DNA of 64,000 nucleotides. Source: Escherichia phage OLB35. Positions within the stretch are counted from its first letter, which is position 1; every line of letters begins with the position of its first letter. The stretch is from the sequence record MH992122.1; one strand, 5' to 3'. The notes under the pieces are model-generated. The model saw only the letters and a program-made list of their open reading frames with translations. It was not told the origin of the DNA and searched no databases. Position numbers and translations under genes: made by a program. Of the stretch, positions 22,981 to 45,395 are shown piece after piece.

Positions 22981-23007
22981 ATTTACTCATTTCGTTTCGA
23001 TAGGTCT

Positions 23008-33099: not shown

Positions 33100-33557
33100 A
33101 TATACGCTTTCCAAGTTCCTGTTTTAAATGTTGAGATTACGCGTTTCGCGCGATTAGGTGTCTGACGATACCATTTAGATTGGGCTAGATTTACTGCCGC
33201 TTCATCCCAACGTTTCTGTTGAAGCATACGAAGAGAATTAGTAAAACCAGCGACGCCTGCTACACCCATTTGGAAGACCATATTGACCAATGCACACCGA
33301 CGAACTGCATCTAAAGAATCATATACCGGTTTAAGTTTAGCATTAACGTCTTCATTAAATAGCTTTTCAGCCTCATCAAGGGTAATTGTACCGTTGCATT
33401 TACGACCGATCATTCTGTCAAGTTCAGCTTTAGCTACGGCTAAAGACGGGTTCTTTGTTACTAAATGGCCTATGCCAATCGTCCAAAAGCCTTCAGTGTC
33501 TTTGTATAAAGTCAGTCTAAGACCTTCGTCATTACGAAGCATTTCAAATATATTCAT
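33096..33557 (-). CDS. e: Lysozyme (endolysin) e
   Basis: [32 protein letters not shown]... matches T4 lysozyme; appears to lack ~9 residues near T4 positions 70-80. Confidence 0.92.
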
Positions 33558-33591
33558 AATACCTCCCACGTTTATAGGAGGTATTTATTAC

Positions 33592-34050
33592 TTATATGAC
33601 GGTAGTGAGCACCTTATATAATGATTTGCCCATTACATATTCCCATTGAGAAGGTTTAATTAAAGCGTATGCATCAAATTCAGGAATCTGTCGTCCGTCT
33701 GGGAATGTATGATAGGAATTACAAACACTGTTTCTGAATTGCTCGTGCTCTACAGGGATGGTATATAGGAACAGATGAATATTCTTATTGTCTGAGTAAT
33801 GATGTTCACCTAGGTCTTTCAGGAAGGCAGGGTCATATTGTGTAAACCCAGTTTCTTCTTCGCATTCACGAATAGCGGCTTCAATAGGAGATTCGCCAGG
33901 TTCGACACGGCCTTTAGGAATATCCCACCGATGAGCTAAAGAACCTTTAGGACGAGAACCAGTTACACGGCCCATGAATAACTCTTTATCTTCGGTAAGG
34001 AAAATAATACCGGCTGATAGCTCTTTCACTTTATTTTTCTTACTCATCAT
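33592..34050 (-). CDS. nudE: Nudix hydrolase NudE (e.1)
   Basis: Nudix box GRVEPGESPIEAAIRECEEETG; downstream of e as in T4. Confidence 0.85.
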   Translation of the reverse strand: MMSKKNKVKELSAGIIFLTEDKELFMGRVTGSRPKGSLAHRWDIPKGRVEPGESPIEAAIRECEEETGFTQYDPAFLKDLGEHHYSDNKNIHLFLYTIPVEHEQFRNSVCNSYHTFPDGRQIPEFDAYALIKPSQWEYVMGKSLYKVLTTVI

Positions 34051-34276
34051 CTCGGTCCCATGATTTGGCCATTAATTCGGACATAAATTCTTCAATGCGC
34101 GTTTCTTTAGATGGACTTTCACTATTAGAGACCGCAAGTTTGTAATCTGCAATAGGACAGAACATATCAAGGTCCATATTAAGATCGTCTTTGATTTTTT
34201 CTTCTGACACATCTTTATCATATGTGTACAGATAACTATCACATGATTCTGATTTAATGTAAATTGCTATACTCAT
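34040..34276 (-). CDS. Hypothetical acidic protein
   Basis: ~78-aa ORF. Confidence 0.4.
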   Translation of the reverse strand: MSIAIYIKSESCDSYLYTYDKDVSEEKIKDDLNMDLDMFCPIADYKLAVSNSESPSKETRIEEFMSELMAKSWDRDDE

Positions 34277-34764
34277 CTCAAATTCCTGCATTCGGTAATA
34301 AAACGTTCAACTTCATTATTCTTGGCCTTTATCTTGTCTTTACGTTCCTGTAAACTACTTTTAACAAGATTAATAATGATGCCTATAGTACCTCCACCAA
34401 TAATACCACCAATAATACTTACGATAGTAGATGCTAATAAGATAGCGATAATATCTAATATAGCAAAGGCACTTACTTTAGTACTAAAAAACCACACCGA
34501 TGGTACAAATATAATCCATCCTGTTATCCATTGGCACTTATTGAAAAACTTTTCAAGCTCAGCTTGAGTTGTTCGTATTACTTCATCGATAGGTTGATAT
34601 CCATTAATGTATCTGTTCACGATAATACCTGCTGGTTTGTCGATTTTAAATGCTTGACATTGGTGTTTCACTAAATAAGATGGACATCCTGTCCAATCTA
34701 CTGAATAGTATGAAATACCTTCGTTGCCATCGTCTATATTAGACCAATATGTTTTGTTAATCAT
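34273..34764 (-). CDS. Membrane protein with glycine-zipper C-terminus
   Basis: 163 aa; two TM segments including IIGGIIGGGTIGIIINLV. Confidence 0.5.
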   Translation of the reverse strand: MINKTYWSNIDDGNEGISYYSVDWTGCPSYLVKHQCQAFKIDKPAGIIVNRYINGYQPIDEVIRTTQAELEKFFNKCQWITGWIIFVPSVWFFSTKVSAFAILDIIAILLASTIVSIIGGIIGGGTIGIIINLVKSSLQERKDKIKAKNNEVERFITECRNLR

Positions 34765-35450
34765 TACCAGCCTTCCATAGGGAATTCCAGATAAACTTGG
34801 GCATTGACACGAATTTCATTGGTGATCTTTTTAACTCGGTCTGTATTACGAGATACACGTCCGAACCAACGCCATCCATTACTAATTGCACGAGAACCAG
34901 TGTGCCATGTTTGCCAATCGAACTGAAGAAGAGTACGGTCTGGAGCTTCCCATTTCTCTAGTTCGCCTTTTTCAATTTTTTCGAGGACTTCTTTGTGCCA
35001 TTGGCGATAGATAAGTTCGCCATCAGGAATCTGACTGAACTCTGCAGTTCCTGTTGCAAAATGAGTAGGACACACGTCAGCGTTAACAAGACCAAGAATA
35101 TGTTCAGACAAATAGCGAGGATTGTCATAGTCAGGTTGTCCTGCAGTAATAAAATGTTGACCAACCGGAATATCCCGGCGCGGTACATCATCATGGTGAT
35201 AACCTGGAATAGCAGGATACCAACCAGGCATCAGCATATGAACCCGAGAATCAAATACAACATGTTGATTAGTCCAATCAATTGGGAGATTGACAATAAA
35301 GCTACGAGTAATAGGACCGCCGTTATCCTAAGCAAATTTTAAACTACAGTTAAAGAACATAGGCTCGTTCTTGATTTGATCATTAGAAATACCGCCGGCA
35401 AAACCACCTACTGCACGAGCTTGACTATTAAACACTTTAGAACTATTCAT
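34764..35450 (-). pseudogene. 229-codon reading frame interrupted by an in-frame amber codon
   Basis: ATG at 35450 (MNSSKVFNSQARAVGGFAGG...SLKFA), TAG at 35328-35330, same frame continues (DNGGPITRSFIVNLPIDW...) to 34764; the track sees only the C-terminal 157 aa. Confidence 0.5.
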
Positions 35451-35451
35451 A

Positions 35452-35757
35452 TTATTTTCCTCGACATTCTTTAATGAAATTTTCTAGATTGGTAGATTCA
35501 ATAGCTTTTTTACGAGCTTCTGCGTGTTCTTCTTCAGACAATTTACATTTATAATTAACCCAGACGTTATGGTCAAAACTAGTCGTGGCATATAATAACA
35601 AAGCCCCGACGAATAATAAAAATGGTGATAAGAATACAAAACCAGGAACACCATCCATATCGTAAGCCTTTTGTAATACTGCAACAGAAAGAGCTACGTA
35701 AAAAGGTGATACAAATATAGTTAAAAGACCAATTCGGTTGGTTTCGCCTAATTTCAT
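35452..35757 (-). CDS. Membrane protein
   Basis: 101 aa with two hydrophobic helices. Confidence 0.5.
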   Translation of the reverse strand: MKLGETNRIGLLTIFVSPFYVALSVAVLQKAYDMDGVPGFVFLSPFLLFVGALLLYATTSFDHNVWVNYKCKLSEEEHAEARKKAIESTNLENFIKECRGK

Positions 35758-35785
35758 AATATTCTCCTCATGTTTTAATAGGACT

Positions 35786-35814
35786 ACTATAACATAGTCC
35801 TATAATTGTGTAAA
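35786..35814 (-). promoter_or_regulatory. Early promoter / PeSL element
   Basis: Minus-strand TTTACA-N17-TATAGT; -10 between inverted arms ATAGGACTA/TAGTCCTAT. Confidence 0.55.
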
Positions 35815-35827
35815 CAGTTTTGCGAAA

Positions 35828-36784
35828 TTATTTGAAAGGTTTTACCATATGGAAATTTTGTTTAAAACGTTTTACATAATCGTCATGTCCTAAGCTTTGG
35901 TACATACTTACAACTTTGCTGTAGTTTTCCCAAGCGTATTCACGGAACCAGCCTGACGTGATTGAAGTACAGACTTTTTCTAATGCCATCATAAAACTAT
36001 CACGTGGATGGATTTCAAAGTTATTAGGAATCTGAGAACGTTCTAACGCTAGTACACATGATTCTTCGTATACGCCGGCTAATTTGACCATTTCTGGTAA
36101 TGATTCGAACTTCTCGCGTGAGGTCATGACTTCAGAACCATCTTTCATATAAAATGTATACGCTGGACGGTCTGTTAGTGCAATGGCTTCGTGAATAGTA
36201 TCATGGTCATACGTATAGATGTCATCTTTAAAGAATGCGCTTTTAGAAGTGTCAAGAACTGGGTGAGCATAGTTCAAGGTTTCTTTCTGGCGTTTCAGCA
36301 TAATTTCAGTAAGTTCATCGTTCAGTGTAACACCTTTACCACGAAGATACTGAATATGGTTCATAGTCTTTAAAAAGAATGGATTATTTTTCTTGAAACG
36401 ATGAGACATCTTAATTGCAAGACACATCTCAGGAGTTGCCCAGTAAAACCCGTTCAAACGGTCTTTAGTCAAATTTTTCTTGGCGTATTTTAAAAGGTCA
36501 TAAGAAGACGTGAAATCTTCAGGAGTGAGTTCACCGACTAATTCACGGACATTAGTGATTGCCGGAACAATATATGCTTCAAAATGAGTTTCGCGTCCAT
36601 TATGGAAGCATTTGAAAACTTGGACATCAGGGTTATCTTGGTGAACATATACACCCATCATTTGATTTTTGAATACATTCCAAGAACCTTGGTCCGCAAT
36701 AAAGTCCCAATCACTATTTTTGATAGCGCTAGAATCAATAAGGCCGTGATAGTGAAGTGCACGAGAACCAATAACTAACATCAT
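35828..36784 (-). CDS. Hypothetical protein (318 aa), candidate enzyme
   Basis: Large ORF (MMLVIGSRALHYHG...) with no motif I can assign. Confidence 0.55.
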   Translation of the reverse strand: MMLVIGSRALHYHGLIDSSAIKNSDWDFIADQGSWNVFKNQMMGVYVHQDNPDVQVFKCFHNGRETHFEAYIVPAITNVRELVGELTPEDFTSSYDLLKYAKKNLTKDRLNGFYWATPEMCLAIKMSHRFKKNNPFFLKTMNHIQYLRGKGVTLNDELTEIMLKRQKETLNYAHPVLDTSKSAFFKDDIYTYDHDTIHEAIALTDRPAYTFYMKDGSEVMTSREKFESLPEMVKLAGVYEESCVLALERSQIPNNFEIHPRDSFMMALEKVCTSITSGWFREYAWENYSKVVSMYQSLGHDDYVKRFKQNFHMVKPFK

Positions 36785-36812
36785 AATATTTTCCTCGGAT
36801 TAATTCATTAAC

Positions 36813-37064
36813 TTAAATTTCGCGACATGCGATATTATATTCATCCCAGAGGTCGTCATGTGAAGCCTCTACCAATGGAACGATTGTGCCGTTTATGTCT
36901 TCATTATAAGGGCAAATTGTACAGTGCGCATCTTCGAATCGGATGCCTTTGTGTTCAGATTTTTTATAACGCATATCGAATATCTTTGCAAACTTTTCAC
37001 GAGTAATAGTTTTAGCAACTACTTCTGTTCCTATACTTTCGTAATAAACCATTGTTGTCTCCAT
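36813..37064 (-). CDS. Cys/His-rich small protein
   Basis: 83 aa; HCTICPYNEDINGT...CREI. Confidence 0.45.
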   Translation of the reverse strand: METTMVYYESIGTEVVAKTITREKFAKIFDMRYKKSEHKGIRFEDAHCTICPYNEDINGTIVPLVEASHDDLWDEYNIACREI

Positions 37065-37080
37065 TTAATTTGATAGGACT

Positions 37081-37109
37081 ACTATAACATAGCCCTATCT
37101 TGTTGTAAA
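37081..37109 (-). promoter_or_regulatory. Early promoter / PeSL element
   Basis: Minus-strand TTTACA-N17-TATAGT with flanking GATAGGACT/AGCCCTATC arms. Confidence 0.5.
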
Positions 37110-37114
37110 CTGTT

Positions 37115-37312
37115 TTAGCAAGAATAACTAGATGATACCCAGCCTTGAACAGTAATACTATTATTTGATAACGAGATTGCGTCCTGGAGATTCAGACCTG
37201 CATTATCTTCAATCCACAATGTAACTTCTTCACGCTCTTCGGTTGCAATCTGGAACAGGTTTTCTAGAGCAGCTACTGCCGTACGTACAGCACAATCTAA
37301 TTCACGAGACAT
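37115..37312 (-). CDS. Small protein, WVSSSxxC-tail family, member 1
   Basis: 65 aa ending ...VQGWVSSSYSC. Confidence 0.5.
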   Translation of the reverse strand: MSRELDCAVRTAVAALENLFQIATEEREEVTLWIEDNAGLNLQDAISLSNNSITVQGWVSSSYSC

Positions 37313-37321
37313 ATGATTTCC

Positions 37322-37595
37322 TTAACAAGTGTGAGAAGATGCAACCCAACCACCATCTTCAAGGCTCAAGTTGTAGTCGTATTGGTAAACGTCGGCCCAT
37401 TCAGCATAACCGTTTTTTTGTACAACGTTCAAGATCGGCTTTAAGATGTCCTGGTGAATGATAGGTTCCACCCATGCCATAAGCTGGATACAAGTTGAAT
37501 GTTGTGTTTTGTTTATTAGCAATTTCTTTGGCAGCCTCAATAGCTGCATAGATTTTTGCTACAGCTTCAGCCAGTTCGGTTTGTTCTTTAGACAT
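37322..37595 (-). pseudogene. WVSSSxxC-tail family member 2, frameshifted
   Basis: N-terminal frame (37595-37401: MSKEQTELAEAVAKIYAAIEAAKE...YGMGGTYHSPG) and C-terminal frame (to 37322: ...NGYAEWADVYQYDYNLSLEDGGWVASSHTC) each match the intact paralogue. Confidence 0.5.
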
Positions 37596-37604
37596 AATGA
37601 TTCC

Positions 37605-37910
37605 TTAGCACAACGCAGAAGACGAAACCCAAGCACCTTCAGTAATAACGTAACCATTACCTTCACGCTTAACATCGCCACCATTATTTTCAATTTCATC
37701 TTTCATCCACTGGGATACGATTTCACCCTTAGGATAATAAGTACGACCGCTACCATAATCACCTACAGAAAATGATACTGCATATTGGTCTGCGATCTTT
37801 GTTGCTTCTTCTTCGATACGTTCAGCTTGATTCAGAAGTTTATAAATTGCATCTGAAGCGGATTTGGCATCATTAAACTCTGGTACTTTAATTTCAATAA
37901 TCTTACTCAT
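37605..37910 (-). CDS. WVSSSxxC-tail family member 3 (intact)
   Basis: 101 aa: MSKIIEIKVPEF...GDYGSGRTYYPKG...GNGYVITEGAWVSSSALC. Confidence 0.55.
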   Translation of the reverse strand: MSKIIEIKVPEFNDAKSASDAIYKLLNQAERIEEEATKIADQYAVSFSVGDYGSGRTYYPKGEIVSQWMKDEIENNGGDVKREGNGYVITEGAWVSSSALC

Positions 37911-37935
37911 TTTCTACATTCCTTAATAAAGTTTT

Positions 37936-38321
37936 CGATTGTTTCATTTTCACGTTTAGCTAGGAGTTCATTATAACTAATCATTTGAGAAGCGTAAACA
38001 GCATAAATTCAGTTAAGGCTTTTGCATCTTATTTCCTTAACGAATTCCATAGCTTCTTCATATTCATACTTTTTAACAGCTTCGATTGTTTCATTTTCAC
38101 GTTTAGCTAGGAGTTCATTATAACTAATCATTTGAGAAGCGTAAACAACGCCGTCAATAAGAAATCCAACTAATCCAAAGGCAAATCCCATGCCAATACT
38201 CATAATAAAAATTAGAATGTTCTCACCAAGAGAAGGCCAGCATAAATTCAGTTAAGGCTTTTGCATCTTATTTCCTTAACGAATTCCATAGCTTCTTCAT
38301 ATTCATACTTTTTAACAGCTT
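37936..38321. repeat. Segmental duplication, units A-B-A-x-B (A ~65 bp, B ~83 bp)
   Basis: A at 37936-38000 and 38083-38147; B at 38001-38083 and 38239-38321, near-identical; unit A carries GTTTAC-N17-TATAAT on the minus strand. Confidence 0.8.
38009..38203 (-). CDS. Chimeric small membrane protein sharing its C-terminus with the next gene
   Basis: 64 aa; last 22 aa (VKKYEYEEAMEFVKEIRCKSLN) identical to the end of 38248-38640 because of repeat unit B. Confidence 0.4.
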   Translation of the reverse strand: MSIGMGFAFGLVGFLIDGVVYASQMISYNELLAKRENETIEAVKKYEYEEAMEFVKEIRCKSLN

Positions 38322-38640
38322 CATCATACTGAGCTTGGGCTTTTGCGCACTGAACTTTCCATTCTCTTAATCGGGCTCTGTGATGACGTCCTTGGTACCA
38401 ATATCCCATCCAGTTAATAGGCATTAATAAAAACGGTACAATAAGTGGTGCGACGAACATTAATGAAAATGCTGCATCAGACGATATAACTTCACTAGAA
38501 TCTAAAACGGCTCCTATAATCATAAAGATTAAAAATGCTAAAGCTAAAATAGGGCCAAATAGTACTTCATTTGGGATTAATTTACGCTTGTATTCATACG
38601 CCCAGGGCTTACTTGGCATGTATAGGGTTGGCTTTGACAT
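38248..38640 (-). CDS. Membrane protein
   Basis: ~130 aa from the internal Met (MSKPTLYMPSKPWAY...); two TM helices. Confidence 0.5.
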   Translation of the reverse strand: MSKPTLYMPSKPWAYEYKRKLIPNEVLFGPILALAFLIFMIIGAVLDSSEVISSDAAFSLMFVAPLIVPFLLMPINWMGYWYQGRHHRARLREWKVQCAKAQAQYDEAVKKYEYEEAMEFVKEIRCKSLN

Positions 38641-39232
38641 ATTCTCTACATTCCATAATAAATTGCTCAAGGATTAAATTGTTAGTGAAATTAGGACTAA
38701 CAACCATAGTTTCATAAAGCGCATCAATAGCACTTAAAGCATCAACTCTCTTAAGCAAAGGCTTGCCTTCATACATAGTTTCAGAATCGACGATTAACGT
38801 AAAGTAGTATTTTTTATTATCGACTAGAACTTCTGTATCGATATAAAACATATTAGTCCTCAGAAGCTTATCTCTAAAACCATAATAATCTTCAGAGCGT
38901 TCGCTGATATATTCCCATTCAGTGTTTAAACAACAAACAGACCACGTAGGAGCAACGAAATCAGTGAATCTAATATCATGGTCTGCAACTAGTTTAGCAA
39001 TAGCTCCGATATCATGAATCATAATACCTGGGGCTAATAAAGATTTTCTGCTATGGCTAGCCGTTTTCTCGGTGGTCTCATAAGAAGACGACCAGTACCA
39101 TTTACGTCCGGTTGCAACATATCGTAATGAATCAACTAAAGACGTAGGTGGATTTACCTTATCTCGGAACTCTTCGAACATTGAGTCAATATCATTATTT
39201 TGGTTTCGCATGTTAACTCCTTTATTATCCAA
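38609..39232 (-). CDS. Hypothetical protein
   Basis: 207-aa ORF; start may be at 39211. Confidence 0.5.
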   Translation of the reverse strand: MDNKGVNMRNQNNDIDSMFEEFRDKVNPPTSLVDSLRYVATGRKWYWSSSYETTEKTASHSRKSLLAPGIMIHDIGAIAKLVADHDIRFTDFVAPTWSVCCLNTEWEYISERSEDYYGFRDKLLRTNMFYIDTEVLVDNKKYYFTLIVDSETMYEGKPLLKRVDALSAIDALYETMVVSPNFTNNLILEQFIMECREYVKANPIHAK

Positions 39233-39260
39233 AAGGAGGACCGGAGTCCTCCGTATTATT

Positions 39261-39854
39261 TTATTTCAAAGAGTTAATATATTCTTGTACATCAGCAGAA
39301 GTGGTTTCGACACCGGCTGGAGTGCCATTGAACGTTTCAACACGAGTCAGAGTGTCTTCGATATCAACCTTAGTCAGTGCAGCAATTTCAATCACATCAT
39401 CAGCCGTAGAGATACCAAGGGCATTGGCTGCTCGAGTTTCACGAATGTATTCGAGTTTGATTGCCAGATTCTGACGAGCATCATCAAGTTCAACCACCTT
39501 ACGAGCAATTTCAATTCGCATAGCGGCATAACCGTCAGCTTTTGTATTAAGTTGTTCGGCAGTTCGACGATACAGAAGACCAAGCTTAGCATGCATGGTA
39601 ACATCTTGTCCTTCAGCCAGGAGCTTACGAATTTCACGTTCCTTAGAAGCGGCTTGCTTGTTCTTTTCATTAACAAGTTCGCGAATACGTTTTTCTTCAT
39701 TAATAGATTTAACAGAAGCCGTTTTTAGTTCTTTGATTTGGGTAATCAACTTATCTGCAGCTGCGTTATACTGTTCTTCGACAGTCAGATTTTTAGCCAT
39801 AGCAGTACCCAGTTTAGTGCGGATGAATTCAACAAGTTTCTTCAGTGTGTTCAT
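39261..39854 (-). CDS. Alpha-helical coiled-coil protein (possibly PspA/IM30-like)
   Basis: ~198 aa, Ala/Lys/Glu/Arg-rich heptad pattern; family assignment is tentative. Confidence 0.4.
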
Positions 39855-39924
39855 ATTATTACCTTTCAATTGGTGGTTTATTATCCAATGAGAGCATTAT
39901 ACTCTGCTCTCAAGAGTTTGTAAA

Positions 39925-40152
39925 TTATTTTTTAATCAAATTGACATAAAACTTGGCGTCTTCCGGGTGCATGCCTTCGCAGTATTCTTCAACCATGAAC
40001 TTCTTAACAGCTTCATAAGGACCACTCAGATTAAGCTCAGTTGTCCAAAACTTGGAATCTTGGGCTGAATCGATACGAACTTCAGGGTGTCGGTTGCGAA
40101 TAACTTCTTCGGTGTATTCATAATCAACGACATCAATACTAACTTTAGCCAT
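39925..40152 (-). CDS. Hypothetical protein
   Basis: 75 aa: MAKVSIDVVDYEYTEEVIRNRHPEV... Confidence 0.5.
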   Translation of the reverse strand: MAKVSIDVVDYEYTEEVIRNRHPEVRIDSAQDSKFWTTELNLSGPYEAVKKFMVEEYCEGMHPEDAKFYVNLIKK

Positions 40153-40700
40153 TTTGTTTCTCCTCTGTAGTTGATAAGTCTTAACTATAGTATCACCATC
40201 ATTGGTGTTTGTACATCATTATTTTTAATTTTTCCAACTTAACAACCTTCAGCCAAGATACAACAGAGTTTTTATCTGAGGATTCAAATTCAGGCATTGG
40301 ACTTTCACCGCGAATAACTTCTTCGGTGTATTCATAATCAACGACATCAATACTAACTTTAGCCATTTTGTTTCTCCTCTGTAGTTGATAAGTCCTATAG
40401 TATCACCATCATTGGTGTTTGTACATCATTTATTTTTAATTTTTCCAACTTAACAACTTGTAGTGTCCTTCATTCATACGTGGTTTATCCCAAGAAATAC
40501 TAATATATGATTCGCCATCAATAGCTTTTTCTTCACCACCACCACTGATAGTCCTCTGTAGTTGATAAGTCCTATAGTATCACCATCATTGGTGTTTGTC
40601 AACTATTATTTTTAATTTTTCCAACTTAAAACTTGTAGTGTCCTTCATTCATACGTGGTTTATCCCAAGAAATACTAATATATGATTCGCCATCAATAGA
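40085..40700. repeat. Three tandem copies of a ~160-230-bp module (gene 3' end, promoter, leader, gene 5' start)
   Basis: Core ...ttttgtttctcctctgtagttgataagtc(c/t)ta...tagtatcaccatcattggtgtttgt... recurs at ~40153, ~40366 and ~40549 with flanking duplicated coding ends. Confidence 0.8.
40199..40366 (-). CDS. Chimeric 55-aa ORF created by the duplication
   Basis: MAKVSIDVVDYEYTEEVIRG...; first 19 aa identical to the start of 39925-40152, then diverges. Confidence 0.3.
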   Translation of the reverse strand: MAKVSIDVVDYEYTEEVIRGESPMPEFESSDKNSVVSWLKVVKLEKLKIMMYKHQ

Positions 40701-40916
40701 AGTCGCCGGGTTTTTCTCTACCGTAAGACCTTCACTTTCCAGCCATTCAATAGTATTTGCGCATAAATCTGAAGAACACCTCATCGGAAACTGGCAAGAT
40801 TTTTCACCTTTAGATGCAGCGTTATACATCTTTTCTAAAATACGCTTTTGCACGTTTTTAAAAATGGTTTCAGCAGATTCTTCAGATTTTTTATTCAGTT
40901 CAGTATAAAGACTCAT
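40626..40916 (-). CDS. Hypothetical protein
   Basis: Start at the second Met (MSLYTELNKK...) after GAGGAG; C-terminal coding end is duplicated in repeat copy 2. Confidence 0.5.
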   Translation of the reverse strand: MSLYTELNKKSEESAETIFKNVQKRILEKMYNAASKGEKSCQFPMRCSSDLCANTIEWLESEGLTVEKNPATSIDGESYISISWDKPRMNEGHYKF

Positions 40917-41005
40917 AATATTCTCCTCATTAATAGGGCTCATAATATCTCAATCATTAGCTCATTTACGTATTTATAGTAACAGCATTCTCTGAGAGAT
41001 TCAAA

Positions 41006-41033
41006 CTAAAAAGCCCCAACCTTTTGGCTAGGG
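41006..41033 (-). terminator. Rho-independent terminator
   Basis: Minus-strand AGCC-loop-GGCU hairpin followed by UUUUU, 3' of 41043-41507. Confidence 0.5.
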
Positions 41034-41042
41034 TACAGAATG

Positions 41043-41507
41043 TTATTTGATTTGTTTAGCAGACCAAATGCGGTCTTTAATAAGTTTTTGGATATCTTCA
41101 ACATACTCAAGGCTATGAGCGTGAGGATTATCTTTGAAGCTATGTGCTCGTGCCAGTTTCTGGCCTTCAGTTTTGATTACCAAAAGTTCTTTAAGAATTG
41201 CTTCATACTTAGAAATAATTCCTTTGGCGATATTTTTTTCTTGAGCTGCTTTAGGGCCCGCTTTTGGTGCTGGTGCTTTACCTGTAGCTTTCTGGAACAA
41301 TTCACCTGATGCAGCTAGGCTTTTAAAAACTCGGCTAACAGTATTAGCATTAGTAAAACCTTCGGCTTTAAAATCTCTAATAAAACGGAAACGTTCTTCA
41401 TCAGAGGCGTCTTTGTAAGAATATTTACCTGCTTGAATTGCTGCAATCGCAGCGGCTTTTACATCTGAACTAGATTGTTCAGTCAAAAATTCTGCATATG
41501 ATTTCAT
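41043..41507 (-). CDS. Internal-protein-like (CTS-bearing) protein
   Basis: N-terminus MKSYAEFLTE resembles the capsid targeting sequence; 154 aa, Ala/Lys-rich. Confidence 0.5.
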   Translation of the reverse strand: MKSYAEFLTEQSSSDVKAAAIAAIQAGKYSYKDASDEERFRFIRDFKAEGFTNANTVSRVFKSLAASGELFQKATGKAPAPKAGPKAAQEKNIAKGIISKYEAILKELLVIKTEGQKLARAHSFKDNPHAHSLEYVEDIQKLIKDRIWSAKQIK

Positions 41508-41551
41508 GTTACTTTTCCTAAGTTAATTAACTTATCTATTTATTATTATGC

Positions 41552-41580
41552 AAAAAAGCCCCAACCTTTCGGAAGGGGCT
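41552..41580 (-). terminator. Rho-independent terminator at the end of the tRNA/stable-RNA transcription unit
   Basis: Minus-strand AGCCCC-loop-GGGGCU hairpin followed by a U6 tract. Confidence 0.6.
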
Positions 41581-41886: not shown

Positions 41887-42231
41887 TCATTTTGGCATAT
41901 CATCAATTTGCTCTCGACGCCGACGCCATAGATTAATCGCTTCATTAACACATTCGGCGTTTGGTATATGACGGCAATAATATAATGATTCGCGTTTCTG
42001 GAACCGATGTTGCAACGGGATTTCGTTTAAAAGATCTTTACGATCAAAGTATTCAAAACTAGTTAACCCTGAACGGTTTTTAATGAACTTCCAATGTCCG
42101 AATTCGTTTTGAACATAGATGTAATCGGCATGCTGATACAGCGAATTAATCAACCGGTCGGAAATAACTGTATCCTGTTCGTTAAAATAAAACGTTAAAT
42201 CATGAACTACCAGATAAATATTACCTTTCAT
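41887..42231 (-). CDS. Hypothetical protein inside the tRNA cluster
   Basis: 114 aa from the ATG at 42231 (MKGNIYLVVHDLTFYF...) with GAGGAAA; the longer track form would overlap tRNA-Arg. Confidence 0.5.
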   Translation of the reverse strand: MKGNIYLVVHDLTFYFNEQDTVISDRLINSLYQHADYIYVQNEFGHWKFIKNRSGLTSFEYFDRKDLLNEIPLQHRFQKRESLYYCRHIPNAECVNEAINLWRRRREQIDDMPK

Positions 42232-42249
42232 ATTTTCCTCACTTGAAGT

Positions 42250-42326
<77 letters not shown>

Positions 42327-42329
42327 AAT

Positions 42330-42404
42330 TGGTGACCCTGGCTGGTTTCGATCCAGCTACCTATCAGTTATGAGCTGACAGCTCTCCCATTGAGCTACAG
42401 GGCC
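42330..42404 (-). tRNA. tRNA with anticodon CAU (Met or Ile2-type)
   Basis: Acceptor GGCCCTG/CAGGGTC, D-arm GCTC-AATGGGA-GAGC, anticodon loop CTCATAA, T-arm GCTGG-ATCGAAA-CCAGC, encoded CCA; C4-G69/C5-G68 fit an Ile2-type tRNA. Confidence 0.8.
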
Positions 42405-43653: not shown

Positions 43654-43839
43654 TTACTCACCTTTTGCAATTTTATCCATAACGATAGCGATTAAGCCGA
43701 TTAGAAATGCTACTACCAATGAGATAGAGTTTTCAGTTGTTGTCAGTAGTCCACAAATGAATCCTACAAACATCGAAAAGCTAAAAGCCATTGAAGCAAT
43801 TACTACAGCAACATTACGAATCAGTTCAGCGCGTTTCAT
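43654..43839 (-). CDS. Small membrane protein
   Basis: 61 aa with two hydrophobic helices (MKRAELIRNVAVVIASMAF...). Confidence 0.5.
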   Translation of the reverse strand: MKRAELIRNVAVVIASMAFSFSMFVGFICGLLTTTENSISLVVAFLIGLIAIVMDKIAKGE

Positions 43840-44265
43840 TTTATTTCTCCTTTACTCATTTTGTTTTGATAGGACTACTATAACATATCCATATAGGCTT
43901 GTATATCTTTATTTCAAATATATTGCGTATTTTTTATAGCCACCAGGCTCGTGTCGAAGACCTTTATCATTCGCAAAACGTTGAATGTTATTGAACTGGT
44001 TTTCATCGAATGATGATTTAATCTTAGCTTTAGATCCTTTAGTTATAGAAATAAACATCTCGGAAGACCCTTTCTTAAAGTCTGATGCAGATACTTCAAC
44101 ACCGTTCTTAGCAAGTGACCTCAGAATTGCATCTGCGTACACTTCATATGTGTCGAATATGAAAAAGTTTTGTTAGCTACCAAGCGTGATATATTGAGAA
44201 TCAGTTCAGCGCGTTTCATTTTATTTCTCCATTTACTCATTTTGTTTTGATAGGACTATTATAAC
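43819..44265. repeat. Direct repeat pair (~65 bp each) carrying a PeSL promoter plus the first codons of a gene
   Basis: gaatcagttcagcgcgtttcattttatttctcc...gataggact...ataacat at 43819-43885 and 44198-44265; the second copy starts a 32-codon ORF sharing MKRAELI with 43654-43839. Confidence 0.75.
43909..44142 (-). CDS. Hypothetical basic protein
   Basis: 77-aa ORF. Confidence 0.45.
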   Translation of the reverse strand: MYADAILRSLAKNGVEVSASDFKKGSSEMFISITKGSKAKIKSSFDENQFNNIQRFANDKGLRHEPGGYKKYAIYLK

Positions 44266-44286
44266 ATAGTCCTATCGGCATGTAAA
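44258..44286 (-). promoter_or_regulatory. Early promoter / PeSL element with perfect 10-bp inverted repeat around the -10
   Basis: Minus-strand TTTACA-N17-TATAAT; GATAGGACTA ... TAGTCCTATC arms flank the -10. Confidence 0.6.
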
Positions 44287-44290
44287 CTAC

Positions 44291-44578
44291 TTACAGAAGA
44301 GTTTTTGCAATAATTTTAAGCTGAGCTACAGAAATGTGCTTAGCTTTAAACAGTGCAGTCTCTTCAGCCGGAGAGATAACAATAGTAGCGCCATCTTTCT
44401 TAGCAGACCATCCATCCCCTAAGTAAACAGTACCTTTTACTTCTTCGCCGTCAGCCAGACTAATCATTGGTTTGCCCTCACGTCCTTTATTTGCTTTAAT
44501 AACTTCGGAAGTAAGGGTTGCTTCAGTCAGAGTAGAAACGTTAGCATCAGGTGATATAAATTCTTTATAGGTTTTCAT
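44291..44578 (-). CDS. Internal protein I-like (capsid-targeted)
   Basis: Starts MKTYKEFIS...; 95 aa; sits between the tRNA region and 57B as T4 ipI does. Confidence 0.6.
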   Translation of the reverse strand: MKTYKEFISPDANVSTLTEATLTSEVIKANKGREGKPMISLADGEEVKGTVYLGDGWSAKKDGATIVISPAEETALFKAKHISVAQLKIIAKTLL

Positions 44579-44624
44579 TTTATTTCCTTGAGGCTGTTTA
44601 TTTGATAGGATGATAGTAACACAC

Positions 44625-45395
<771 letters not shown>

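Follow-up and report, generated by a model that had tools for sequence, protein, structure and literature searches.

Three early-promoter modules between ORF146c and frd.3 in a Mosigvirus sequence: a probable chimera of two phage variants, more likely of assembly than of cellular origin

Between two small genes of a T4-type coliphage, the window (the whole stretch of DNA analysed here, 64,000 nt) carries three copies of one early-promoter cassette, separated by pieces of genes. The question is whether this arrangement records recombination in a phage or arose when the sequence was put together. The window belongs to a Mosigvirus (RB69-like T4-type coliphage) and is 96-98% identical to CCU7, CAU_ECP01 and Shf125875 across 25 kb. 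The locus lies in the e-to-tRNA hyperplastic region, where the genes occupy the minus strand in the order g134-like (41043-41507), ORF146c-like (40626-40916), repeat zone, frd.3-like (39925-40152) and e.6-like (39261-39869). The ORF146c-like gene is the short allele (96 aa; Pfam Phage_T4_Y10B in relatives); its product ends in ...NEGHYKF and that of CCU7 and PhAPEC2 in ...HYKLLSWKN, because of a 1-nt deletion (AAGTT-TTAAG) relative to these two phages. The frd.3-like gene encodes 75 aa (Pfam Phage_FRD3 in relatives).

The three modules lie head to tail on the minus strand within 40153-40625, at a spacing of 175-214 nt: P3 at 40625-40552, P2 at about 40457-40367 (core 40367-40437) and P1 at 40246-40153, directly upstream of frd.3, which it is predicted to drive. 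An earlier sequence-only reading of this DNA had claimed three copies of a module, and these are indeed present, 91-95% identical to one another (P3/P2 94.8% over 96 nt, P2/P1 95.1% over 102 nt, P3/P1 90.8% over 87 nt). Within the window, BLAST of module against module gave E-values of 1e-27 to 1e-41 and found no further high-identity copy in the 64 kb, which excludes chance or low complexity as the source of the repeats. A looser early-promoter family is dispersed, with 6 copies of 53 nt at 64-89% identity. Larger repeats pair 40096-40183 with 40310-40397 (88 nt, 99%) and 40434-40524 with 40609-40699 (91 nt, one indel).

On the sense strand, the unit comprises the last ORF146c codons (AAGTTGTTAAGTTGG) followed by an AT-rich tract upstream of the boxes (AAAAATTAAAAATAA), a -35 box, a 17-nt spacer with the hairpin CACCA-ATGA-TGGTG, an extended -10 box (TGaTACTAT), the start region AGGACTTATCAACTACA, the SD GAGGAG and an ATG. 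The 5-bp hairpin lies in the -35/-10 interval of all copies and of the relatives as well; its folding z-scores (-0.1 to -1.7) are no better than those of shuffled sequences, it has no T-run, and no terminator-like site was found in 40153-40625. The P3 promoter (TTGACA, a 17-nt spacer with the CACCAatgaTGGTG hairpin, TGaTACTAT) matches the consensus at 10/12 positions plus the TG, whereas P2 and P1 (TGTACA, 17 nt, TACTAT) match at 8/12, under the scan threshold, with a sequence that is kept in all relatives. The -35 of P3 differs from that of P2 and P1 by a cluster of four bases (ATGATGTAC to ATAGTTGAC), which perfects the inverted repeat TAGTTGAcAA / TTaTCAACTA from 5/10 to 9/10 matches; from its bases, this cluster looks like a replication-templated (quasi-palindrome-type) mutation in a physical copy. 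At the 3' end, P2 and P1 carry SD and start codon (GAGGAGAAACAAAATG), whereas P3 runs from GAGGA into a filler with no ATG there. P2 has an extra A (AAATAAATG) typical of Shf125875, mogra and phiE142, and P1 has a copy-specific 4-nt insertion (TATAG-TTAA-GAC) and includes the final 13 nt of the ORF146c coding end (GTTGTTAAGTTGG). Markers of the CCU7 lineage (loop AATGA, TATAGG) occur in all three modules.

The DNA between the modules consists of gene fragments. Read in sense, the locus runs from the short ORF146c through P3, a 27-nt filler, a start-less ORF146c 3' end and P2 to a fusion of frd.3 codons 1-19 with ORF145c codons 20-38, and on through the final 13 nt of ORF146c and P1 to frd.3. 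The filler (40551-40525, minus strand; CTATCAGTGGTGGTGGTGAAGAAAAAG), which has to be added to the layout first proposed, separates P3 from the stump. It shares homology with an interior stretch of the long ORF146c allele (mogra/Shf: CTTGGGGTTGGGGTGGTGAAGAAAAAG), aligning as RTISGGGEEKAI in the window and RTWGWGGEEKEI in mogra. Its first 10 nt match no known allele, and a search for a better donor of the 27 nt returned only two allele forms (22/28 and similar), neither identical. The stump (40438-40524, minus strand) is a second ORF146c 3' end (CTATTGATGGCGAA...KLLSWKN and a stop codon), with no in-frame start codon ahead of an internal Met. The 3' coding end IDGESYISISWDKPRMNEGHYK(F/L) is accordingly present twice, at 40699-40626 as the end of gene 40626-40916 and at 40524-40438 as the stump, a duplication that the sequence-only reading had seen correctly.

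That reading had also described a 55-codon chimeric ORF at 40199-40366 (minus strand; MAKVSIDVVDYEYTEEVIR + GESPMPEFESSDKNSVVSW + LKVVKLEKLKIMMYKHQ) opening with the first 19 codons of gene 39925-40152. This origin holds, as 40366-40310 equals frd.3 codons 1-19, and the account can be extended: the remainder, at 40309-40247, comes from a real gene that is intact in relatives, RB69ORF145c (50-54 aa), and consists of its codons 20-38 plus CTGAAG, after which the 3' part of the ORF runs on into P1. No homology between frd.3 and ORF145c that might have caused the fusion at codons 19/20 was found by BLASTP at E<=100.

Public Mosigvirus genomes show few architectures at the ORF146c-frd.3 locus, all of them clean. 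In the C type (CCU7, PhAPEC2, SF, ESh27), the short ORF146c is followed by the promoter P and frd.3; in the A type (O157 typing phage 3, ST2, JN02), by P, ORF145c (50-54 aa), P' and frd.3. The S type (Shf125875, mogra, one GenBank assembly) has the long ORF146c (167 aa), P, ORF145c, P' and frd.3, and the phiE142 type has the long ORF146c, P and frd.3. Both endpoints of the ORF145c presence/absence polymorphism lie in the repeated SD/start sequence GAGGAG(T)AAACAAAATG, which makes it the type of exchange predicted by the model of promoter-early stem-loop (PeSL) cassettes.

Against this background, the simplest origin, an in-situ tandem duplication in one genome by replication slippage or unequal sister exchange with no second parent, appears highly improbable. 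The head-to-tail order and regular spacing of the copies would fit it, as would the presence of one lineage's markers in all of them, but the spacers are foreign to the C type and contradict it. The ORF145c piece with the next 3 nt (GTT, common to the P1 start) equals Shf125875 at 66/66 nt, including a GG variant, and the long-allele piece is absent from CCU7. A simple tandem duplication, moreover, repeats its own sequence and creates a single junction type, and four different junctions are found here.

The first new junction joins the SD edge to the interior of the long allele (ACAGAGGA to CTATCAGTGG), the second leads from that interior to about codon 73 of ORF146c (GAAAAAG to CTATTGATGG), the third fuses frd.3 codon 19 to ORF145c codon 20 (GTTATTCGC to GGTGAAAG), and the fourth passes from about codon 40 of ORF145c to the last ORF146c codons (GCTGAAG to GTTGTTAAGTTGG). 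The k-mers spanning them are ACAGAGGACTATCAGTGG, GAAAAAGCTATTGATGG, GTTATTCGCGGTGAAAG and GGCTGAAGGTTGTTAAGTTGG. None of the four falls within the conserved promoter core: they are in coding sequence or at the edge of the cassette, with shared microhomologies of 0-8 nt. Junction microhomologies are ACAGAGGA/ACAAAGGA, (C/A)(T/A)ATTG, AAGGTT/AAGTT, TGT and GAA.

The position of these junctions bears on the mechanism proposed by the sequence-only reading, namely PeSL shuffling caught with its intermediates still present. In its classical form, homologous exchange between cassettes or integration of a mini-circle would insert a cassette plus an ORF, here with intermediates yet to be resolved. Part of this stands: what is repeated is an early-promoter cassette of T4 type within a hyperplastic region, its anatomy fits the PeSL-like elements of T-even phages, the relatives' ORF145c polymorphism behaves as the model predicts, and a normal cassette indel is associated with 43813-44284, although the cassette body there is scrambled. 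Degraded and multiplied -35/-10 copies have also been published and put down to recombinational slippage (Comeau et al., 2014, PMC4122927). However, 4/4 window-specific junctions outside the core contradict this reading; the inserted units are a start-less 3' stump and a 19+19-codon chimera in place of cassette-flanked ORFs; and mini-circle integration predicts the gain of one cassette and ORF, not a locus that keeps the S-type length, within 10 nt of the alternative allele. PeSL shuffling is thus a possible but not the best reading, and in its classical form an improbable one; the assembly artefact that the sequence-only reading had named as its refutation is at least as likely.

The retained length becomes clear from the register, measured as distance from the ORF146c ATG in the window, in Shf125875/mogra and in CCU7. 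The filler core lies at 379 in the window and 381 in Shf125875/mogra, the promoter at 476 and 489, and the ORF145c piece at 610 and 623, all three being absent in CCU7; frd.3 starts at 764 nt in the window, 773/774 in Shf125875/mogra and 374 in CCU7. The promoter and the ORF145c piece are 134 nt apart in the window as in the S type. The diagonal between window and mogra stays constant within 11 nt from 33342 to 41572, whereas CCU7 is off by -239, -390 and +1117 nt. Each CCU7-type copy begins where C and S types are truly homologous, be it in the body of ORF146c, in the promoter P or in the body of frd.3, and then extends 45-108 nt into unrelated sequence with its length almost unchanged; PeSL-to-PeSL exchange, mini-circle integration and simple tandem duplication all fail to predict such a pattern. 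Judged by these alignments, the locus is a mosaic in which one CCU7-type stretch is used three times, together with two islands (27 nt and 63 nt) from the S type. A genuine S-type locus has about the length of the window locus, so an artefact would not be exposed by the size of an amplicon alone.

The same signature recurs nearby. Within 6.3 kb, alternative alleles are combined into mosaics of S-type length at three more loci. At 37999-38145, 147 nt of the e.3 membrane-protein gene are replaced, with length kept, by perfect copies (85 + 67 nt) of adjacent gene ends, yielding a 64-aa hybrid ORF; the 67-nt copy, X' (38081-38147), comes after an S-type piece, Z. The intergenic region upstream of ORF146c (40917-41042, minus strand) is part of the same mosaic block as the promoter modules. 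There the CCU7 flanks of the 1117-nt e.8/ORF149c segment are joined (GTTACT to ATAAAT) at the length of the Shf type (132 versus 129 nt). The two sources are interleaved base by base at 40950-40975, and 4/4 bases that depart from the right-hand source equal the left-anchored one in exact register, leaving zero bases unexplained. At 43840-44300, an internal-protein (Ip) cassette without a start codon is scrambled from three alleles (681 nt versus 671 nt); the normal cassette indel at 43813-44284 has promoter repeats about 90% diverged. One variant's coordinates with the other's bases, the mark of a chimera, are therefore found at several polymorphic loci. In addition, the essential DNA polymerase gene contains a unique 26-nt frameshifting insertion at 773-798, which means that the record is not, as it stands, the sequence of a viable genome free of errors.

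Searches for the novel sequences elsewhere were negative. The junctions of the window were not found in about 150 Mosigvirus records, were absent from the metagenome contigs and genome contigs searched, and had no match in IMG/VR, where only two contigs with this locus make the negative a weak one. Neither the 55-codon nor the 64-aa hybrid ORF occurs in a collection of 15 billion proteins. A neighbouring 154-aa protein was found in 22 contigs, every one with clean architecture, and each of the three neighbouring mosaic loci is absent from all public records searched.

The surroundings of the locus belong to a real phage lineage. The flanks differ from CCU7 by 0-1 mismatch per 500 nt from 38238 to 41500, and many 500-nt bins of the window are 2-8% away from both CCU7 and Shf125875, which excludes a pure two-parent chimera of the whole window. 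The window-specific substitutions (106 synonymous / 49 non-synonymous; 37/13/105 over the three codon positions) are strongly third-position and synonymous, so that random sequencing error behind the divergence is excluded as well; on this substitution pattern, the backbone is a genuine independent lineage under purifying selection. The change of SNP ancestry from Shf-like to CCU7-like coincides exactly with the 38000-38238 locus, and further S-like patches lie at 42200-42400 and 44007-44150.

A real, very young recombination scar, left by mixed infection of a CCU7-like and a Shf125875-like Mosigvirus, is accordingly a rival to be weighed, although we regard it as rather unlikely. Donor strands would pair at three anchors (ORF146c body, promoter P and frd.3 body), be carried base for base into heterology by helicase-driven branch migration, or held there in register as a heterologous 3' tail in the recombination filament, and finally be joined by microhomologies in register. 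With exchanges clustered in this way (high negative interference), four switches within 800 bp and comparable scars at heterologies close by would be expected, and the promoter cassette, as one anchor, would have a PeSL-like role. The ancestry switch and S-like patches speak for such an event, as do the junction microhomologies, the copy-specific mutations with their quasi-palindrome-type cluster in P3, the purifying selection on the backbone and the location in the e-tRNA/IP hyperplastic region, where shuffling is documented. The CCU7 architectures at 38000 and at this locus could, furthermore, be derived from those of the window by simple direct-repeat recombination. Register would, however, have to survive 45-108 nt of fully heterologous sequence at no fewer than seven ends, and we know of no recombination pathway that preserves it in this way. 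No such scar exists in about 150 sequenced relatives, though C and S types co-circulate; the base-by-base interleaving at 40950-40975 also counts against it, and the broken polymerase gene shows errors in the record. T4-type recombination, as Singer et al. (1982) are cited in PMC2839356, works on less than 50 bp of homology, so direct repeats of ~150 nt with 95-99% identity and a gap of only 27-63 nt should not persist for long. A single very recent event would be required for one genome to carry four unstable scars.

The locus as recorded most likely does not reflect a genome that replicates. It is better read as a chimera of two phage variants that arose more likely during assembly than in a cell. 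The explanation is probably, though far from certainly, an assembly chimera of the mixed-variant or reference-guided kind. From the demonstrated anatomy, donor types, register, uniqueness and neighbouring-locus signature, we infer a computational rather than a cellular process. The CCU7-type stretch (ORF146c 3' end, early promoter, SD and frd.3 codons 1-19) would have been written three times into an S-type frame, as CCU7-like reads or contigs were superimposed on an S-type scaffold or a co-occurring S-type variant, or combined with it one position at a time. Reference-guided or iterative mapping consensus and the polishing of a mixed population are possible routes. The islands of 27 nt and 63 nt would survive where no CCU7-type copy reaches, and the triplication would exist in no single phage DNA molecule. 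A process based on coordinates accounts for the register, the reuse of one donor, the survival of the islands, the way bases interleave, and why all of this falls together in a single record.

Other computational routes fared less well. A mis-join in a De Bruijn graph is excluded, as the junctions share only 0-8 nt, and a consensus of a multiple-genome alignment is excluded both because each genome gives a residue once, leaving no room for triplication, and by the missing 1117-nt e.8/ORF149c segment. Strict column-wise overlay of CCU7 on Shf125875 fits only piecewise, since small indels shift the register and X' stays unexplained.

Several observations count against an assembly origin as well. 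The copies are not identical (the four-base cluster of P3), and the 4-nt insertion in P1 and the 1-nt deletion in the ORF146c end break strict register. Neither X' (38081-38147) nor the first 10 nt of the filler is explained by simple overlay of reads from one sample, the backbone is a genuine, selected lineage (by its ratio of synonymous to non-synonymous changes), and no specific pipeline can be named that reproduces every detail. Illegitimate recombination in T4-type phages also yields junctions with 3-8 nt of microhomology.

The two outcomes differ in what they would mean. If the locus is an artefact, the genome is unfit for claims on promoter multiplication, gene birth or PeSL intermediates, and four hyperplastic loci and the DNA polymerase gene in the record are suspect. 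If it were instead a mosaic in real phage DNA, a doubtful prospect, in-register strand assimilation would have crossed 45-108 nt of unrelated sequence at several hyperplastic loci at once, leaving heterologous patches in register, extra promoter copies and gene stumps. This would be a previously undescribed outcome of T4-type recombination, caught crossing heterology with promoter cassettes as anchors, and would offer a concrete route for the spread of such cassettes and for the breakage and fusion of small early genes. In either case, the register test (an alternative allele's length, the other allele's bases and unique junctions) offers a cheap chimera flag for phage databases.

Among known systems, the PeSL cassettes of T4-type phages (Arbiol et al., 2010, PMC2839356; Comeau et al., 2014, PMC4122927) are close in anatomy. 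As in these, the unit is intergenic, lies in a hyperplastic region and adjoins genes that differ between close relatives. The upstream gene's stop codon falls within an AT-rich tract, the -35 and -10 boxes are 17 nt apart with a small hairpin between them, and SD and start codon follow at the 3' end in P2 and P1, though P3 has no ATG. It differs in that the 5-bp hairpin lacks a T-run and folds no more stably than shuffled controls, so that it does not clearly qualify as the stable stem-loop of a PeSL element, and in that the high-identity unit is present at this locus only. The endpoints that characterise PeSL events, inside the cassette and moving whole ORFs, are seen only in the relatives' ORF145c polymorphism; in the window, the junctions lie outside the core, gene fragments intervene and the alternative allele's length is kept.

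According to Repoila et al. (1994), as cited in PMC2839356 and PMC4122927, early-promoter elements flank the IP genes of T-even phages; as described there, they resemble the present unit in their T4-type early promoters, weak AT-rich stem-loops and small, exchangeable early genes alongside, but the cases are clean allele replacements, not multiplied promoters and truncated genes. The IP locus of the window (43840-44300), 3 kb away, shows the same kind of mosaic. Homology-facilitated illegitimate recombination reportedly uses homology as the anchor at one end and 3-10 nt of microhomology at the other, and its description is said to come from bacterial natural transformation rather than from T4-type phages. 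The CCU7-type tracts likewise start in homology and end in heterology at short microhomology, but this process is not known to hold register with the recipient.

Consensus chimeras caused by reference bias or mixed strains occur in viral genome assemblies. The window departs from these in the small indels and copy-specific base clusters of its copies and in X', which a one-sample overlay does not explain. It resembles them in combining one variant's coordinates with another's bases, in the scaffold-derived islands that remain where nothing maps, in the use of one read-derived sequence at several anchors, in the interleaving of bases where overlays meet, and in junctions that are unique.

Beyond the early-promoter module, an interleaved duplication with the order X-Y'-X'-Z-Y (primes denoting copies of the labelled segments) occupies window 37934-38322 at the e.3/e.4 locus. 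Here, two perfectly copied gene 3' ends, 85 nt from e.4 and 67 nt from e.3, stand in place of 147 nt of the gene for the e.3 membrane protein, a replacement that creates a hybrid ORF of 64 aa (38009-38203). The arrangement has the same length as the type found in Shf125875 and mogra, the S-type relatives, and a deletion junction, Y|X, is the sole form of the e.3 locus in CCU7 (the closest C-type relative), phiE142 and phiC120. The retained S-type piece, Z, is preceded in the window by the 13-nt TGAATTTATGCTG, which occurs elsewhere only in deletion alleles.

A scrambled internal-protein cassette was located at 43840-44300, consisting of a copy of the promoter and first 7 codons of the trna.4-like gene (100% identical to CCU7), followed by Ip9 nt about 113-157, Ip7 nt about 88-217 (100% to Shf125875) and Ip9 nt 166-264. 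As a result of the scrambling, the Ip gene lacks a start codon, and this order of pieces was seen in the window only. A 54-nt tandem direct repeat (44624-44715; core of 38 nt, 89% identity) adjoins the IP/gp57B region, and the alignment diagonal to CCU7 moves by 54 nt at this point. Near the tRNA genes, a short patch at 42200-42400 carries 0 mismatches to Shf125875 versus 24 to CCU7 within CCU7-like surroundings, a clean, equal-length allele replacement.

Upstream of the ORF146c-like gene, the intergenic region (40917-41042) joins the CCU7 flanks of the 1117-nt e.8/ORF149c segment at GTTACT|ATAAAT, a junction found in no record; the intergenic length is 132 nt in the window versus 129 nt in Shf125875. 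All four bases deviating from the right-hand CCU7 source (4/4) correspond, in register, to the left-anchored CCU7 sequence. In P3, the promoter copy directly downstream of the same gene, a four-base cluster in the -35 region (40590-40600) turns ATGATGTAC into ATAGTTGAC, giving the consensus TTGACA; complementarity with TTATCAACTA, which lies downstream, also improves from 5/10 to 9/10, a pattern typical of quasi-palindrome-templated mutation.

In gene 43 (DNA polymerase, minus strand), a 26-nt insertion, CCGACAATGATCTAGGTTTTTGCAGT (773-798), lies directly after ...AKRLSP; because it shifts the frame, the ORF stops at 611, and the remaining polymerase sequence runs on in a different frame. The insertion was present in none of the 112 matching phage records, and no second copy was found within the window. 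Separately, a 27-nt deletion was observed at 33345/33346 relative to CCU7, Shf125875 and mogra, all of which hold 24-27 additional bases there.

Finally, a dispersed early-promoter family comprises 53-nt units at 22982, 23262, 35760, 37055, 43851 and 44232, built from GTTTACA, 17 nt and TATAGT, with a stem (AGGACTA...TAGTCCT) extending across the -10 box. The dispersed units are stronger candidates than the three-copy P3/P2/P1 module for elements resembling the promoter-early stem-loop (PeSL) cassettes of T4-type phages.
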